A stretch of DNA of 64,000 nt from an uncultured delta proteobacterium. Lineage in GTDB: Bacteria; Desulfobacterota; Binatia; Binatales; Binataceae. The position numbers and the translations under genes were made by a program. The stretch lies in the NCBI GenBank assembly GCA_963711565.1, contig CAVQEQ010000003.1, forward strand, positions 192,001 through 256,000, written 5' to 3'. Each line of letters opens with the position of its first letter. Position 1 is the stretch's first letter. Of the stretch, positions 46,735 to 53,605 are shown in pieces. The notes under the pieces are model-generated. The model saw nothing but the letters and a program-made list of their open reading frames with translations, did not search any database and was not told the DNA's origin.

Positions 46735-47106
46735 CTAGAATGGAGCGTTTGCAGCCGGCTGGGCCGCCGCATCGCCGCGCCGTCCCAAGAACCGGATTTG
46801 CCGCGCGACGATTTCCGTGCGGTAACGCTTGCCGCTGCCGTCCTTCGCCTCGTACTCGCGGGTCGTCAGCCGTCCTTCGACGTAGACCTGGCGCCCCTTG
46901 CTGAGATACTCCGCGCATGTTTCGGCCAGCTTCCCGAAGGCCACGATGCGGTGCCATTCAGTCCGTCGCTGCTTCCCGCCATTGCGGTCGGTAAACCGCT
47001 CGGTCGTCGCCAGCGAAAGATTCGCCACGCTCTGACCCGACGGAAGAGTCCGCGCCTCGGGAGTCGCACCCAGATTGCCGATCACCGTTACACTGTTTAC
47101 TGCCAT
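46735..47106 (-). CDS. ssb: Single-stranded DNA-binding protein (mobile-element type)
   Basis: VNSVTVIGNLG, TEWHRIVAFGKLAE, KGRQVYVEGRL, C-terminal APF. Confidence 0.92.
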   Translation of the reverse strand: MAVNSVTVIGNLGATPEARTLPSGQSVANLSLATTERFTDRNGGKQRRTEWHRIVAFGKLAETCAEYLSKGRQVYVEGRLTTREYEAKDGSGKRYRTEIVARQIRFLGRRGDAAAQPAANAPF

Positions 47107-47188: not shown

Positions 47189-47234
47189 TTTTTTTTCCGG
47201 CCTCTCAAAAAAGAGTGGAGGCCGGAGAAAAAAA
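47189..47234. promoter_or_regulatory. Long hairpin upstream of ssb (ssi/Frpo-like candidate)
   Basis: TTTTTTTTCCGGCCTC ... GAGGCCGGAGAAAAAA. Confidence 0.5.
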
Positions 47235-47324
47235 TAAGTCGGGGTGGAGCGGCGGTTGGGCGGTTACAATTTTGGATCGCGAAGACGCGGCGTCCTGCGG
47301 ACGCAGGACAGGACTGTTTTACCT

Positions 47325-47454
47325 TCTTTAATGCGGTTCGCGTCAAGGATTTTTTTACGTTTTGATTTTGCCCTGGCCAAGGACGCGCGACGCGGCAAGC
47401 CACCTCTTTAAATGCGGTTCGCGTCAAGGATTTTTTACGTTTTCATTTTGCCCT
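47325..47454. repeat. Duplicated IS right end (about 50 bp x2) separated by a copy of the 32-bp left target flank
   Basis: 47325-47374 matches 47405-47454; 47373-47404 matches 48908-48939 with 1 mismatch. Confidence 0.85.
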
Positions 47455-47499
47455 CTCCGTTAAAGCGATCGATGATGTCATCCCCATGCGAGCCTCGGC

Positions 47500-47720
47500 A
47501 GGTATCACGCTTCTTTCCGGGATCGGCGCCAGCATGAGCTTGCGTGAGGCGCGCCGTCCCAAATGACTGTCCATTCGAAGAGTGAAGCGGAACCATCTGG
47601 CCATCGTGGTCGCTCGGTCCTGAATTTCGACCGCCTCCACTAGGTAAAAGCCGTTCTCGCTCCAGTCTCTTCCCGTCCTGCCGGACGGCTCTTCGCCGAT
47701 AGTGGCGGCGGAGAAGCTAG
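47500..47720 (-). ncRNA. Bridge/seekRNA of the IS1111-type element
   Basis: Internal loop displaying TTTTACCT and TGGCCAGA, which match the two halves of the target; second loop displaying ACAGTCAT and AAAGA, which match the donor junction. Ends approximate. Confidence 0.8.
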
Positions 47721-47748
47721 ATAAATCGTTTACTCCTTAAGTGATGGG

Positions 47749-48795
47749 CTAAGCTGCGGCCGCCAGCGCGTCAACGCCAGGCTGATTGAACCGGAACTCG
47801 GTTCCATCGCGCCACATCGCGTGCAGGATTACCGCGAGTCTGCGCGCTACCGCCACGCAGGCTTTTTTCTTCGAGCTGCGTTTAGCAAGGCGCAGGCCCC
47901 AAGCCTTCAGTGCACTCGGCTTGCCACGGGTGAGAAGCACAGTGGCGGCTTCAAAGAGATGCGATCGCAAGAACGCGTCGCCGCACTTGGTGATATGGCC
48001 GTCATAATCCACTTCCCCGGATGCATACTTCCTGGGTGTCAATCCGACCGCTGCGCCCACCGCCTTTGAACGCGCAAACCTTTGCGGCCGATCGATGGAT
48101 GTTTTGTACAAAAGGGCGGTCAAGGGTCCGATCCCTGGAGCCGTCATGAACCGACGGCATACTTCATCATCCCTGACGTGATCCAGAATCATCTTCTCCA
48201 GTTTCATCATCTGGACGATAAGCTCGCGCCGCACGGCCAGCATCGGAAAGATGTAAGCCTGGAGTTCCTGGTCGTCTCCAATCAGCTCGCGGATGCGCGG
48301 TTCATAAGAGCGAATCGTAACCTTGCCGGTCTTCATGCCGAACACTTTGAGCGTTCCCCGGATTTGACTGTCAATGTCGAGCCGCTTGTCCAGAAGGCAG
48401 CGGCGATTGTTGAGCAGAACGCGGAGCTTCTGACTGACGTGGCTTTTCAGGTGGACTTCTCGATACCAGCCAGTGCGCATGATGTGCGCAATGCCTCGGG
48501 CATCGTTGCGGTCAGTCTTGACTTGCTGTGCTTTAAGCGCCGCTTTCGCGTGCCGGGTTTCTATGCAGATGGCCGGATAGTTCAAGGACAAAAGCTCATG
48601 GCACAGCCAGGGCGTAAGACCGCCAGCTTCCAGGCCAACTCTCTCCATGGCGAGTCCGAGCTTGCCGAGCCACTCGTGGATGGCGGCAGGCTCCGTAGGC
48701 ACCTCGCCTTCGCGCACGATGTCGCCGTCCTGGTTCACGACGCACAACGCCGTGCTGTTCAATGACACGTCCAGACCGCAGAAATATTTCTTCAT
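47749..48795 (-). CDS. IS110-family DEDD recombinase/transposase
   Basis: GLDVS, GLEAG, KTDRND, PGIGP, ASGE (catalytic Ser), VAVARRL. Confidence 0.95.
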   Translation of the reverse strand: MKKYFCGLDVSLNSTALCVVNQDGDIVREGEVPTEPAAIHEWLGKLGLAMERVGLEAGGLTPWLCHELLSLNYPAICIETRHAKAALKAQQVKTDRNDARGIAHIMRTGWYREVHLKSHVSQKLRVLLNNRRCLLDKRLDIDSQIRGTLKVFGMKTGKVTIRSYEPRIRELIGDDQELQAYIFPMLAVRRELIVQMMKLEKMILDHVRDDEVCRRFMTAPGIGPLTALLYKTSIDRPQRFARSKAVGAAVGLTPRKYASGEVDYDGHITKCGDAFLRSHLFEAATVLLTRGKPSALKAWGLRLAKRSSKKKACVAVARRLAVILHAMWRDGTEFRFNQPGVDALAAAA

Positions 48796-49109
48796 AGCTG
48801 TTCTCCGTTGTTGATGGCAGGAAAGGTGAATCTACAGCCGGAACAGATCTTTTTCTATGCAGGGTCAGACTGTTCCGCTGGCTGCCGTCGAGCCGCATTA
48901 CAGTTATCTGGCCAAGGACGCGCGACGCGGCGAGCCACCATAATCCCCGGCGCCGCCATCGGTATAGCCGCGCGTCTGATCAACCAGCGGTCAGGGTGAT
49001 ACGTTGTCGGGCATAGACCCGCGAGAAGCGCTCGAGCGCGCTGAGTGTGTATTGCCGGAGGCGGAGGCAGATAGGCCGTCGCACGTCCCGGCCAAGATGC
49101 TGGTCCTGG

Positions 49110-49757
49110 CTAAGGCGTCTGCTCGATGAAGGAAGACCTTATCGCATTAAGGCACCCGGCTGCCGGTAGGACCACCCCCCGGGGGAACCCGCCCTGATGC
49201 GGCGGGGTACCGGGAAGTGGCCCCACTCCTTCTGGCCCCGGACCGGGGGCCGCGAGAAGCCGGTTAGCAAGATTTTCGCGTTCATCTGCGGACATGGCGC
49301 TGATTCTCGTTGCCGCGCTGTCCTGCATTTTTTGTTTGAGATCACTCATAATCTTGTCGATGCTTCCGAAATGTGCGAGTACATCGGCCTTGGTCACGCT
49401 GCCCTGTTTCAGCTTTCCGGCAAATTCTTTGCGCAGATTGCCGATCCGGTCGAAGTTCTCCTGCAACGATGCAAGATTGTCTTTCATGTCTTGCGGGTGG
49501 AAAACGTCGTCCGGACCAAAGAATGGCGGCGGCGCACCCAGTTCGGGCCCACCCCCTAGCCTGCCGTCCGGCCGGACCCCCGCTAGAAAGGGAGCTGGTC
49601 CTATTCGTGGTCCATGGAACATCATCTCGCACGGCCCAAGGCTGCCATGATGACCGACTATAAGGCCGATCAGAAACACATTCAGAGCTGCGGATCCCAA
49701 CAAAAGTTTCGTGCTTCTCAGACCATTCACGTAAGCCCCCCTGTCATGGTTGTTCAC
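49110..49757 (-). CDS. Membrane-anchored periplasmic heavy-metal-sensor/Spy-like protein
   Basis: SAALNVFLIG anchor, helical bundle, MSADERENL. Confidence 0.65.
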   Translation of the reverse strand: MNNHDRGAYVNGLRSTKLLLGSAALNVFLIGLIVGHHGSLGPCEMMFHGPRIGPAPFLAGVRPDGRLGGGPELGAPPPFFGPDDVFHPQDMKDNLASLQENFDRIGNLRKEFAGKLKQGSVTKADVLAHFGSIDKIMSDLKQKMQDSAATRISAMSADERENLANRLLAAPGPGPEGVGPLPGTPPHQGGFPRGVVLPAAGCLNAIRSSFIEQTP

Positions 49758-50125
49758 AGCATAATTTCATAAGGCGAATCCGGACCCAGTATGATGAGGT
49801 CGGCATACCCTTTGCGATATTTCACCGCCTTGAAGTGTGCCGAACCCATGTCAGAATCCGTGAAGCTCGCCATTGCAGCATCGTGCCTGCTATCTCGTGT
49901 TTCTCCGATACCCAGCGTAAAACCAGATAGCCCGATCAAAAGATACAGCACCGCATACGCAAGCCGCGTCCAATATGGGTTTTGCTCCTGAATCTGATTG
50001 GCGGCAAGGTGGGTGGCCGGCAGGAACTCTGCAATTTCGATTGCCGCAAGCACCCGCTGAAATAGAGCTTCGTCCGCACCTGCGGCGGTATAGGTATCAA
50101 GCAGCCGATCTAGATCCTTATCCAT
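49754..50125 (-). CDS. Probable single-TM anti-sigma factor
   Basis: LDRLLD N-terminus, one TM, overlaps the sigma gene. Confidence 0.65.
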   Translation of the reverse strand: MDKDLDRLLDTYTAAGADEALFQRVLAAIEIAEFLPATHLAANQIQEQNPYWTRLAYAVLYLLIGLSGFTLGIGETRDSRHDAAMASFTDSDMGSAHFKAVKYRKGYADLIILGPDSPYEIML

Positions 50126-50675
50126 GCTTCTCCTCCTGTAAATTCTCTCTCAAATCCTGTTTCAGGTTCTGCCGAGCGCGATAGAGCAATTGTTCAAATG
50201 CGCCAAGCGGAAGCCCCATGACGTTTGCCGCCTCCTTGTTGCTGATCTGCTCGTAATAGCTGAGAATGATGGCTGCCCTCTGCCGTTCTCCTAAATCTCC
50301 TATCGCCCTGCGAACATGTGATCCGCGTTCGCGATCAATCAGAGTCTTTTCTGCGCCCGGTTTCTGGTCTTCGACCAAGTCCAGGTCGAGATTCGCGACA
50401 GGTACTTGACGGCGCTTGTGATCGATAGAGGCATTGAGCACCACTCGATAAAGCCAAGTCGAGAACTTCGCCTGCGGCTGCCAGCGCTCTGCTTCGTGCC
50501 AAATCTTGAAACATACGATCTGCGTTATATCTTCCGCATCCTGGCGATTTCCCACCATGCGCTCAGCAACGCGCACACACAAATCCATATATTTATGCAT
50601 CAACTCGCGATACGCGAGTTGATTCTTCTGCGCAATCTGCACGATCAAAAAGTGGTCGGCGTCAGAAAAGGGCAA
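50118..50675 (-). CDS. ECF RNA polymerase sigma factor
   Basis: DAEDITQ, FSTWLYRV, QRAAIILSYYE, LLYRAR. Confidence 0.9.
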   Translation of the reverse strand: MPFSDADHFLIVQIAQKNQLAYRELMHKYMDLCVRVAERMVGNRQDAEDITQIVCFKIWHEAERWQPQAKFSTWLYRVVLNASIDHKRRQVPVANLDLDLVEDQKPGAEKTLIDRERGSHVRRAIGDLGERQRAAIILSYYEQISNKEAANVMGLPLGAFEQLLYRARQNLKQDLRENLQEEKHG

Positions 50676-50719
50676 ACACCTGTCTCCTCAGCTCTCCTGC
50701 GCAGACTGCTGTTTCTTTT

Positions 50720-50744
50720 AACGAGTGCCGCGCGAAAACCTTAC
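50720..50744 (-). promoter_or_regulatory. Candidate autoregulatory ECF promoter
   Basis: GTAAG-N16-CGTT upstream of the sigma gene. Confidence 0.5.
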
Positions 50745-51020
50745 GCGACAATTTCTCTTTTGCGCACTAAAGGCACAAAATGAATTTAACGGTAAATGCC
50801 TTTTCGAAAGGACTACAGATTTTATTATCTTTTGAACTGACTACGACAGCTAGCCGACAAAAGAGAACCCAGCACGCCAAATAACGCACACCCGTTTCGG
50901 AAGAGCATCAATAAAGCACCCGGCGTATATCATGGAACGAAAGAAGAGACGAGGCGAGGTGGCCCCGTCTCTTCTCCGCAGTCCGGCACTTCCTTACATC
51001 AAAGCCACCTGGGGGGAGGA

Positions 51021-52013
51021 TCAGGCTGAGATGCCTCCTAGGCTGGAAGTGCTTTGTTGGCTAAATTGACTTAGCCAATTCTGAGCCGAACTGGATTGTG
51101 TCGCGGAGCCAGAAGATGTAAGCATACCAAATAGTTGTTGTAATTCCGCGATCAACTCAGTGTCTGTCGAAGGCGTAGAGTTTGTACTGGAGTCTGTAGA
51201 AGACGTAGAGTCTGTAGAAGACGTAGAACCTGTATTAGAGGATGTTGTATCAGTTGAAGCACTCGTGCTGGAAGTTGAGTTGCCTGATGTCGCGCTGTCA
51301 GTCGCATCCGCTCCGGAAGAAAGTGCATTAACCAACTGCTGTAACGCCGCGATCAGATTAGCATCGCTAGAAGAAGTAGTGTTTGCACCAGTTGAAGCAC
51401 CTGGGCTGGAAGCTGCTGCGGTTGATGTGGTGCTATCGGTATTGTTATCAGCCATCGTCGGCGGTGGCGGCATCATGCCGGGTGGCATTCCCTGCATCAT
51501 TGCGGAGGCCAGCTGACTTTCCGTTATCGAGTCAGAGTTACTGTTTCCGCTGATTGCGGAAAACATCGTGTCCGCTTCCGCCTGAGTGCCTCCGTTGTTC
51601 TCGATGAAGCTTTCAAACTCCGTTTTTGAAACGCTGCCATCGCCATTGGTATCCATCGCAGCGTACAGTTGCTGAGCAGGCGATTGCTGCGTGGATGTGC
51701 CGGAAGTGCTGCTGGTGGAATCACTATTACCGCTTGCGTTGGTGGTGCTGCTACTCGTAGCGGATGTACTGGAATCTTCCTCCTGCAATTGCAGAAGAAG
51801 ATCCATGATAGCGCCACTGATCTGTGTCGTGCCGCCAGTATAGCCCTGTGCCTGCGTTGTTGAGCTGTCACTGGCGCCGGCGGCACTACAGGTACTTGTA
51901 GACTCGGCGTCAGAATCGCTATCGGTTTCTGATGCTTGATCGAGTTGGCCGTAAAGCTGCGAGAGTACCTGACTAAGGTTGATTGAACCGGAAGTTATGG
52001 AATCGATGGACAT
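51021..52013 (-). CDS. Ser/Thr-rich EF-hand protein without a Sec signal peptide
   Basis: DTNGDGSVSKTEFE EF-hand, repeated LIAxLQQL helices, 18-bp tandem repeat at 51190-51225, GGAGG RBS. Confidence 0.8.
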   Translation of the reverse strand: MSIDSITSGSINLSQVLSQLYGQLDQASETDSDSDAESTSTCSAAGASDSSTTQAQGYTGGTTQISGAIMDLLLQLQEEDSSTSATSSSTTNASGNSDSTSSTSGTSTQQSPAQQLYAAMDTNGDGSVSKTEFESFIENNGGTQAEADTMFSAISGNSNSDSITESQLASAMMQGMPPGMMPPPPTMADNNTDSTTSTAAASSPGASTGANTTSSSDANLIAALQQLVNALSSGADATDSATSGNSTSSTSASTDTTSSNTGSTSSTDSTSSTDSSTNSTPSTDTELIAELQQLFGMLTSSGSATQSSSAQNWLSQFSQQSTSSLGGISA

Positions 52014-52129
52014 GGCTCTGCCTCCGTTGGAACGATGGATATATGCGCCGACCAAACTTCTCGGGCAGGTGCAAGGCTGCGAGCAGTCAGACGATCCTCG
52101 TCCGACAGGGTCCTCTCGAGGCATCATGG

Positions 52130-52144
52130 GCAAATTTCGTGCCG
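52130..52144 (-). promoter_or_regulatory. Sigma54-type promoter for the EF-hand gene
   Basis: CGGCACG-AAAT-TTGC (GG-N10-GC). Confidence 0.6.
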
Positions 52145-52522
52145 CAGAAATGTACGTGTGAAATCATGCGCGTAGAGTTTTTGAAGCGGCAACCACAATC
52201 CGAGTTCTGGCAAAATGTGCCGCGCGATTTCTGAGGTGGTTCACTTTCCGGCTATTGTTGTTCATGAAAGGGGTGTGTGTTGCTGGCGCCCGCGTAACAT
52301 TTATGTCGATGCGACACACAATCAAATAAGTGCGCAAGAAAAGTGGATTCCACCTTGGTGGTCTAAACAACGCGCCAGGCTTCAATGCATACTAACTAGG
52401 CATTTGGTGTTATCGGCAGGTTTATCACGGCAATGGCAAACGACTAGGCAAATCAGGCTTAGTGTCAGCTTACTCAGCTTTGCTCTTTCCTACTAAGCGT
52501 TTGATTTACTTGATGTGTGGGC

Positions 52523-52539
52523 TTGGCAACAGTCTTGCT
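52523..52539 (+). promoter_or_regulatory. Sigma54-type promoter for the flgD unit
   Basis: TTGGCAACAGTCTTGCT (GG-N10-GC). Confidence 0.65.
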
Positions 52540-52597
52540 GCGGTTCACTCAAGGTATGTGTGTGCCAGGACTGTGGCATTTTGAGAGGGAGCGAAGC

Positions 52598-52726
52598 ATG
52601 AACATTGAAAGCGCGGATGAGTATTACCTCACCGACCCCGAGCCGCTTGAAACATACGAACTGCTCGACTGCACTGACATAAATGCTCTTAACGAGTGTC
52701 TAGATCGGGCGCACATGCCAGATTGA
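52598..52726 (+). CDS. 42-aa acidic hypothetical peptide
   Basis: ATG with GAGGGAG RBS between the sigma54 motif and flgD. Confidence 0.4.
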   Translation: MNIESADEYYLTDPEPLETYELLDCTDINALNECLDRAHMPD

Positions 52727-52798
52727 GCAAATGCGCCAGAGCAAGAGTTCATCATATCGGCAACGATACGATGATTTAGGGAAGGAAGGAACGAGACC

Positions 52799-53605
52799 AT
52801 GACGATCAGCGAAATCTCCTACAGTACCGCTACTTCGGCGGGAACCTCTGCTAGCAGCGCCGCCAGCAGCGCCACGACCAGCGCCTCTGGCAGCGCGACA
52901 TCTAATCCTCTGGCGTCGCTGAGTGACGATTTCAACACATTTCTGCAATTGCTAACTACGCAGTTGCAGAACCAGGACCCGCTCTCGCCTGAAGATCCGG
53001 ATCAGTTCACCCAGGAACTCGTTGAAATGACGGGCGTCGAACAACAGATCACCGGCAATGGCGATCTCAGCCAACTCGTTACTCTTTCGCAAAGCAACGC
53101 CTCGGCAACCTATATGGGTTTTATTGGCCAGACGGTCACCACGCCCAGCAGTCAGATTGCGCTCGAAAATGGCTCCGCCCAGTTCTCCTATACCCTGCCA
53201 AGCGAAGCCTCCAACGTGACCATCTCGATAGAAGACAGCAACGGCAACACGGTCGCAACTCTAACGCCTGGCAGCGATGCCGCCGGCACGTATGACAAGA
53301 ATTGGGACGGCACCTCCGATAGTGGCACCACGGAATCGAGTGGCAGCTACACAGTCAGCGTCTCCGCCACGGACGCAAACGGTGACGCGATTAGCAGCAC
53401 TTCGACCCAAATCATCGGAACCGTCACCGGCGTACAAACCAGTTCGTCGGGCTCGGCCATACTCGATATCGGCCCGGTTTCGGTTGCAGCCAGCTCTGTG
53501 ACCGATGTCGGCAGCGACACCAGCACAACGAGCACCACCACTACGAGCAGCGCCGTCAGTACTCTGGCAAGCCAGCTTACCAGCGATCTTGAGAGCGATC
53601 TCTAG
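52799..53605 (+). CDS. flgD: Flagellar hook-capping protein FlgD (orphan copy)
   Basis: FLQLLTTQLQNQDPLSP, VEQQ, WDGT...G...SGSYT Ig domain. Confidence 0.88.
   Translation: MTISEISYSTATSAGTSASSAASSATTSASGSATSNPLASLSDDFNTFLQLLTTQLQNQDPLSPEDPDQFTQELVEMTGVEQQITGNGDLSQLVTLSQSNASATYMGFIGQTVTTPSSQIALENGSAQFSYTLPSEASNVTISIEDSNGNTVATLTPGSDAAGTYDKNWDGTSDSGTTESSGSYTVSVSATDANGDAISSTSTQIIGTVTGVQTSSSGSAILDIGPVSVAASSVTDVGSDTSTTSTTTTSSAVSTLASQLTSDLESDL

Follow-up and report, generated by a model that had tools for sequence, protein, structure and literature searches.

On its minus strand the window, by which is meant the whole stretch of 64,000 nucleotides analysed, carries a mobile element that, by its sequence, is an IS1111-type insertion sequence of 1585 bp plus one core. 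The recombinase gene (47749 to 48795) encodes an IS110-family DEDD protein of 348 aa, matched by PF01548 and PF02371 and scoring 246.6 bits with the NF033542 profile, for which the cut-off is 140. Both domains typical of the family are present, a DEDD RuvC-like domain as well as a C-terminal domain bearing the catalytic serine, and the residues concerned (D9, E56, D95, D98 and S259) are invariant across 40 aligned proteins. The best fold matches of the predicted structure (pLDDT 89) are IS621, with an E value of 1.3e-15, and ISCro4.

The gene is framed by a short left end of 112 bp (48796 to 48907), with a ribosome-binding-site-like GGAGA before the ATG, and by a right end of 424 bp. The right donor, ATAACTGT, occupies positions 48900-48907 on the minus strand, and in homologues, too, this end word comes after the flank. 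Subterminal inverted repeats, TAATGCGG on the left (48893-48900) and CCGCATTA on the right (47329-47336), both read on the minus strand, match perfectly over 8 bp inside a 15-nt repeat at 87%. Homologues at 57-80% identity, irrespective of their flanks, end in ..CATTAAAGAAG and begin with AGATA(A)CTGTAAT. No damage is apparent in the ORF, the ends or the guides, and the element may be active. It is present once in its own genome, no second copy being found by blastn, tblastn or the RNA model described below; in 40 related genomes the best recombinase relative reached only 35% identity.

Outside the element, on the same strand, lie the two halves of a non-coding target motif of about 90 bp. The left half (48910 to 48939), conserved in empty alleles, ends in the left target TTGGCC; the right target GTAAAAC and the right half of the motif are found at 47260 to 47322. 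Further downstream, an ssb gene of 123 aa (46735 to 47106, minus strand; PF00436, E 3e-37; TIGR00621 above cut-off) begins 217 bp from the element. The element sits near the edge of a lower-GC island, which further on contains ORFs that we take, from their N-terminal sequences, to be resolvase-like and relaxase-like. A lower-GC block (51-57%) at 49110-53605 includes a sigma factor of the ECF type, two small upstream-linked ORFs that have no match in Pfam, and serine/threonine-rich ORFs, one of which presumably resembles a flagellar hook-capping protein. No tRNA gene was found within the 64-kb window, and Rfam searches of 7 loci gave no match at gathering score.

The limits of the element were established from unoccupied sites. 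In public contigs, positions 47322 and 48908 are joined, with 2 bases of overlap and 1585 bp left out; such joints were found in four of six DNA runs, namely in three of four (X1, X3 and X8) and in one of two further runs (X6). Their shorter side measures 28-32 bases, so that they may represent paralogous empty alleles. In genomes of the same family, empty alleles read TTGGCC-AG-GTAAGAG (L220) and TTGGCC-AG-GCAAAAG (L219). The constant ends of homologues, the 2-base joints and the single AG of the empty alleles together show that the core is AG, the left copy of which lies at 48908-48909 (minus strand). The empty site is read as TTGGCC-AG-GTAAAA, and the target is about 15 bp long. A short core at both ends and the lack of a fresh target duplication, both features of the IS110 family, are seen in the AG overlap and in the empty alleles.

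The sequence-only reading had placed a 3-bp core, AGA, at both junctions, with AGGTAAAA as right target half. AGA is indeed present at both, and the left guide reads TGGCCAGA; yet the joints overlap by two bases only, the empty alleles contain a single AG, and the AG that follows AAAGA is kept at homologous right ends for any target and copied in the donor guide, so that this core is almost certainly wrong. The empty target derived from it (..GCC-AGA-AGGT..) is 3 nt longer than contig joints and genome alleles allow, and the circle junction, judged by joints that skip 1585 bp with a 2-base overlap, was given 3 nt too short. The predicted circle junction is CATTAAAGA-AG-ATAACTG. When AG is taken as the core, the junction matches at least 9 of the 12 sigma-70 consensus bases in 23 of 26 elements, which as kin are not independent, while the junction proposed earlier does so in 1 of 26. 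The -10-like hexamer of the window, GATAAC, does not end in T. No consensus promoter was found in the native region of the element, and no circle-type joint was seen among those listed for 8 runs, contigs being apt to drop rare forms.

A bridge RNA, or seekRNA, is predicted from the right end at 47497 to 47691 (minus strand), composed of a 5' hairpin, a target-binding loop and a donor-binding loop. In a 28-row alignment, two-sided changes were found in 18 of 31 pairs, a value reached by none of 500 shuffles, and only 3-11 pairs were compensated when the partners were slid; the structure was derived from the same sequences that were used to score it. The resulting model has a single match in the whole genome, 47497-47691, corresponding to one two-loop module. 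Besides the window and L107 it matches 20 of 39 other loci, down to about 35-45% protein identity, and gives no match at IS4321 and IS5708. Contigs of two RNA runs (X19 and X20) contribute only three 151-nt pieces at 47717-48217, with no piece in the guide region, a depth that shows neither expression nor its absence.

Much of what had been proposed for this region from the sequence was borne out. The quoted guide words TTTTACCT (47642-47649), TGGCCAGA (47596-47603) and ACAGTCAT (47563-47570) lie where they had been placed, and the fold of the hairpin at 47577-47672 contains the pairs named for it, outer as well as inner (z = -2.93, with 3 of 200 shuffles as stable), the two guides being partly paired to each other in its minimum-energy fold. 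A second hairpin was found to be no more stable than its shuffles (z = -0.41, 62/200), but its stem covaries among 28 homologues, with two-sided changes in 7 of 10 pairs. AAAGA, proposed as a donor guide, is present, but the full guide is AAAGAAG, at 47510-47516.

Four guides can be assigned, all on the minus strand. The right target guide, GCTTTTAC-CT (47642 to 47651), is the complement of top-strand AG-GTAAAA(G), and the match is completed by a G at 47316 (minus strand) in contigs from X1, X3 and X8. The left target guide, ATGGCC-AG (47595 to 47604), was assigned by guide-flank comparison; the top-strand guide lies 5' of the bottom-strand one. The AT after the left target guide is part of the shared scaffold (28 of 34 rows) and is identical to the bases that open the donor, not to target; its reading as a handshake guide was dropped, since handshake guides pair with top strands (PMC13626964). 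The right donor guide, ACAGTCATTT (47561 to 47570), is an imperfect complement of AG-ATAACTGT, and all four elements with ATAACT left ends (window, L026, L124 and L138) have a matching AT in it. The left donor guide, AAAGA-AG (47510 to 47516), equals the end of its own element in 31 of 31 rows, in 28 of which the pattern used to find the end constrains the result; in the other three it tracks the variant end, AAAGG in L029 and L032 and AGAGA in L035. A 7/8 match between a loop of the 5' hairpin and the beginning of the left flank was set aside, as it is estimated to be expected by chance. In L125 the target-binding loop is deleted and the donor loop is intact.

The relation between guides and flanks was evaluated across homologues. 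From 50 loci examined (at least 49% identity), 38 had an alignable RNA region and 34 entered the test; 12 rows were dropped for lack of an RNA anchor, and L125, L036, L037 and L131 because they were deleted or misaligned. Left guides, taken from the 28 rows with a left flank (23 distinct guides), match 4.65 of 6 bases in their own flank versus 1.61 in those of other elements; right guides, from 31 rows (25 distinct guides), match 6.16 of 7 versus 3.05, three registers being allowed for observed and permuted pairs alike. Neither value was reached in 100,000 permutations, which ignore kinship. The own guide was best or tied for 19 of 23 left and 22 of 25 right guides, the poorest fits being L043 (1/6), L119 and L121 (2/6 each) on the left, and L033 and L124 (3/7 each) on the right. 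Loop sequences thus change with the targets, contrary to what the sequence-only reading had named as its possible refutation, and the structured non-coding region, with loops covarying with target and donor, is that of the IS110 family. An IS1111-type architecture, with bispecific guides matching the element's own target and donor, is likewise supported. The element likely inserts by RNA guidance, through an RNA predicted to be made from its right end.

The target motif recurs outside the window. Among 26 loci inspected, 18 align over at least 70 nt, with ssb downstream on the same strand in 8 of the 18, and at 2 loci a RepB-type primase gene precedes the motif. Six loose contig ends from X1, X4 and X8 start at 48933-48942, suggesting that related alleles diverge just upstream of its left half. 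Other members of the clade lie beside ardC (L021, L028) or ardA (L022, L027), and further ones beside integrase, resolvase, methylase or ParA-like genes, as well as some unrelated genes. We infer that the motif is a regulatory element of mobile-element leader regions. Frpo/ssi single-strand promoters, in which a stem-loop reconstitutes the -35 and -10 boxes ahead of leading-region genes, were weighed as a model for the motif; compensated pairs (2/10 and 2/13) reveal no convincing conserved fold, nor was a convincing promoter found. The 16-nt left-target word occurs in 17 of 301 genomes, mostly within a conserved coding stretch; at the 18 loci other than the window's two, the motif accompanies it in 3 (L187, L189 and L200). 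The motif pattern was not found among viral contigs, and Rfam searches of 6 loci with target-type motifs gave one weak tmRNA match, below threshold. That the target is new, as had been claimed, is true, but this is ordinary, because every IS110/IS1111 element has its own target (PMC11187229).

Further observations concern the same sites. A GC-rich hairpin in the ssb leader (47190-47236) is found again within the island at a distance of 17 kb (L106, G000:C3:256290-256336), without target motif or ssb. A family-conserved coding stretch at G000:C4:489559-489574 (L206) contains the left target, AG and GTA, and is an unoccupied potential off-target site. Other IS110-family genes were seen beside or inside elements and target motifs (L023, downstream of the RNA region; L026:10-987; L231; L233), which suggests insertion hot spots.

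The nearest named elements, compared by eye, are ISAzs32, ISMex9, ISMno22 and ISMpo4, whose recombinase, as represented by their cluster row, is roughly half identical to that of the window over the RuvC-like domain by a hand count. The bridge RNA of ISAzs32 is one of six drawn in Extended Data Fig. 10c of PMC11208160; in part of the supplements of that paper, three end and guide words of the clade gave no match. The window element differs from this group in having its own guides and target. Its RNA model also matches alphaproteobacterial relatives that are 42-55% identical. On a Methylobacterium plasmid, one 55%-identical relative (L209) immediately follows a traA relaxase gene; its right end is preceded by a long insert. 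Subterminal repeats (7-17 bp), a guide RNA downstream of the gene together with a short left end, and the guide order all agree with the IS1111 group, for whose ISfinder members bridge RNAs are predicted in 93% of cases (PMC11208160). ISEc11, ISKpn4, ISPa11 and ISPst6 resemble the window element in the long stretch of non-coding DNA 3' of the transposase, in their subterminal inverted repeats and in the protein length of 330-350 aa, and in ISEc11, ISPa11 and ISKpn4 the top-strand guide is also 5' of the bottom-strand guide (PMC11187229). IS1111-group seekRNA elements target attC, REP or Tn21 repeats, whereas the target here is a mobile-element leader motif; the doubled right end with a target copy, described below, also sets the window element apart from them. 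To proteins of the IS4321/IS5075 type the recombinase is only about 25% identical. In a tree built without an IS110-group outgroup, and without L131, L139, L138, L043, L148, L128 and duplicate rows, IS4321 and IS5708 are placed outside on long branches. The order of the source data in PMC11187229, where the ISAzs32 block is apart from IS1111A/ISPa11 and beside ISPpu9, weakly hints at a separate grouping.

Compared with IS621 and ISCro4 (PDB 8wt6-8wt9 and 9t56), the modelled recombinase has the same fold (TM 0.68-0.70) at 20-22% identity. The DEDD plus serine residues, a two-loop RNA and a 2-bp core are common to these systems (PMC11208160, PMC13626964), but in the window the core is AG instead of CT, the RNA lies in the right end, the guide order is reversed and the inverted repeats are longer. 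ISPpu9, with MITEPpu9/ssr9, shares the AG core, repeated end boxes and stray recombination at AG. Its repeated boxes allow alternative circles, and in its extra module an sRNA gene is flanked by both a left and a right box (PMC12288879). In the window, by contrast, the repetition concerns the right end alone, and target DNA is what is carried along.

This repetition was missed by the sequence-only reading. On the minus strand, an inner, altered right end (RE1, 47405 to 47454, with a -35-like TTGACG at 47422-47427), also found in L107, is followed by a copy of the left target half plus AG (47373 to 47404), by an outer, canonical right end (RE2, 47323 to 47374, with TTGACG at 47341-47346) and by the right target. 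The 32-nt copy is 97% identical to 48908-48939, and RE1 and RE2 are 94% identical over 51 nt. RE2 contains the left donor AAAGA (47325-47329) and the core AG (47323-47324), and of the two ends this outer one alone is identical to the donor guide and adjoins the right target. The internal join of target copy and RE1 reads CCTTGGCC-AG-GGCAAAA; as the inner copy begins with AG-GGCAAAA, in which 4 of 7 bases agree with the right guide, the join itself reads like a target. L107 has the doubled end as well, in an element allele 98.85% identical to that of the window.

Taken together, these data make it very probable that the locus holds an RNA-guided IS1111-type insertion sequence with an AG core, a target of the ssb-leader type and, within its doubled right end, an inherited target copy of 30 bp. 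The recombinase would bind the RNA predicted from the right end, the first loop of which likely finds TTGGCC-AG-GTAAAAG and the second the element's own joined ends. By analogy with IS621, ISEc11, ISPpu9 and CazIS110-1, the ends would join into a circle, ..CATTAAAGA-AG-ATAACTG.., placing TTGACG 17 nt before GATAAC so as to drive recombinase and RNA; the ribonucleoprotein would then pair target and donor and exchange strands. Recombination would take place at the 2-bp AG core without fresh duplication, and since the donor guide fits the outer right end alone, the unit that moves probably runs from the left core to the outer right core. The doubled end would be inherited cargo, left long ago by faulty recombination at AG sites of similar sequence, in which one event may have taken 30 bp of flank and another joined the left target to the internal AG-GGCAAAA. 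Precedents exist: ISPpu9 recombines at AG and also at unexpected AG sites and alternative junctions (PMC12288879), and CazIS110-1 gives tandem by-products and single-junction transfer (10.1101/2025.10.25.684509).

Right-end DNA resembling the element's own target was sought in 27 members of the clade, duplicates (L115, L117) and elements with inserts under 40 nt (L033, L035) being left out. Four, the window, L026, L116 and L138, gave matches with z between 11.5 and 24.5; L022 was borderline (z 3.6) and the other 22 had none. Insert matches fall on near flanks and on none of 42 distant control segments.

Right-end inserts are shared between some elements. A stem-loop of about 140 bp with terminal inverted repeats is common to the right ends of L026, L126, L138, L116, L117 and L118. 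It is also the landing site of L026 and L038, within its terminal repeats, and of L116 and L138, at internal positions. As cargo it occurs in separate branches of the tree, and it is single-copy in the two of five genomes that contain the stem-loop. At L211:1500-1640 it lies upstream of a DotI/IcmL-family gene. The right ends of L021, L022, L111 and L136 have in common a structured insert of about 250 bp, ending in a ribosome-binding-site-like word; L021 is located directly before ardC and L022 directly before ardA. A 26-nt piece of this insert also matches a repeat that the L022 genome has in 4 copies at other sites. For the L021-type cargo, plasmid sequences gave no match, and its similarity to its own target was not significant (z 1.0), although by eye the layouts look alike.

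It is conceivable, although we hold it to be doubtful, that target-derived cargo is selected, as a spare regulatory copy restored before the downstream gene that lowers the cost to the host mobile element; this is compatible with the explanation given above, and both can hold. The four strong matches and their confinement to near flanks speak for it, as do the presence of two or more different cargos in distinct parts of the tree, the fact that the window's copy begins where conservation of the motif begins, and targets that precede ssb, ardC and ardA, gene types that are expressed from single-strand promoters in the leading regions of plasmids (PMC11541004). Against it, 23 of 27 elements have no such match; in the window, 50 bp of right end separate the parts of the rebuilt motif, whose fold is no more stable than that of shuffles (z -0.39); a conserved fold of the motif, with the few compensated pairs reported above, is not convincing; in L118 and L126 the stem-loop is present without a match to the flank compared; and a stem-loop with terminal inverted repeats could be a MITE. 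The pattern of stem-loop cargo may merely record repeated life beside the same repeats. Integrative elements replace the ends of the tRNA genes they enter, and target-repairing cargo would be alike. The wider generalisation, by which the AG-core clade targets the leaders of mobile elements (ssb, ardC, ardA), repeatedly captures a target copy and restores the downstream leader, is offered as a speculation of low probability. In the literature covered, no description of target-derived right-end cargo in IS1111 elements was found, most subscription journals, ISfinder and bioRxiv supplements being outside that scope.

It also seems unlikely that the element is a fossil, whose guides match through one old insertion inherited with the host element and which no longer moves. 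Its single copy in the genome would fit, as would the same ssb side in all occupied alleles seen and the small differences between alleles, about 1% (98.85% to L107); since occupied alleles with different upstream DNA share the ssb side, they may descend from one insertion. Yet ORF, catalytic residues, ends and guides are intact, occupied and empty sites occur in the same runs (X1, X3, X8 and X6), and the occupied alleles show at least three upstream contexts (the window; L107 and X4; X8 record 32).

For the doubled end, a different origin would be that the element stops at the inner right end and created a 32-bp target duplication, the outer end being the remnant of an earlier, deleted copy. 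Direct repeats of the 32-mer do lie on either side of the element body. However, the copy has a T where the real left flank has a C in the window as well as in L107, and the upstream flanks of the two loci differ, which makes inherited cargo likely and a duplication at this insertion very unlikely; among 17 empty motifs, 3 have the T allele. The inner end moreover fits the donor guide worse, the right target follows only the outer end, the RNA model finds one two-loop module, and only the window, out of 31 elements that were scanned, contains a nearly identical copy of the left flank. An assembly error deserves hardly any credence: two of the four differences between copies and originals do concern homopolymer length, but single contigs bridge the doubled end in X3, X4 and X8 (three studies) and, with 0 differences, in X2, a fourth study and possibly the source sample, L107 shares it, and no listed joint in 8 runs skips one 81-bp unit.

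With inherited cargo as the preferred account of the doubled end, it is well supported that the element belongs to a known class, with a corrected core and one unexplained feature, the target copy in its doubled right end. It provides a natural AG-core system in which four guides are mapped, an empty site is observed and about 25 guide variants are found on one scaffold, and hence a template on which a bridge RNA encoded in the right end can be tested or reprogrammed, in a branch whose identity to IS621/ISCro4 is only about 22%; the corrected AG core is needed for any reprogramming assay. The doubled end permits a direct test of the choice between two right ends and of the capture of flanking DNA. 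If the cargo were selected, RNA-guided elements of this kind would parasitise other mobile elements while repairing the site that they hit.
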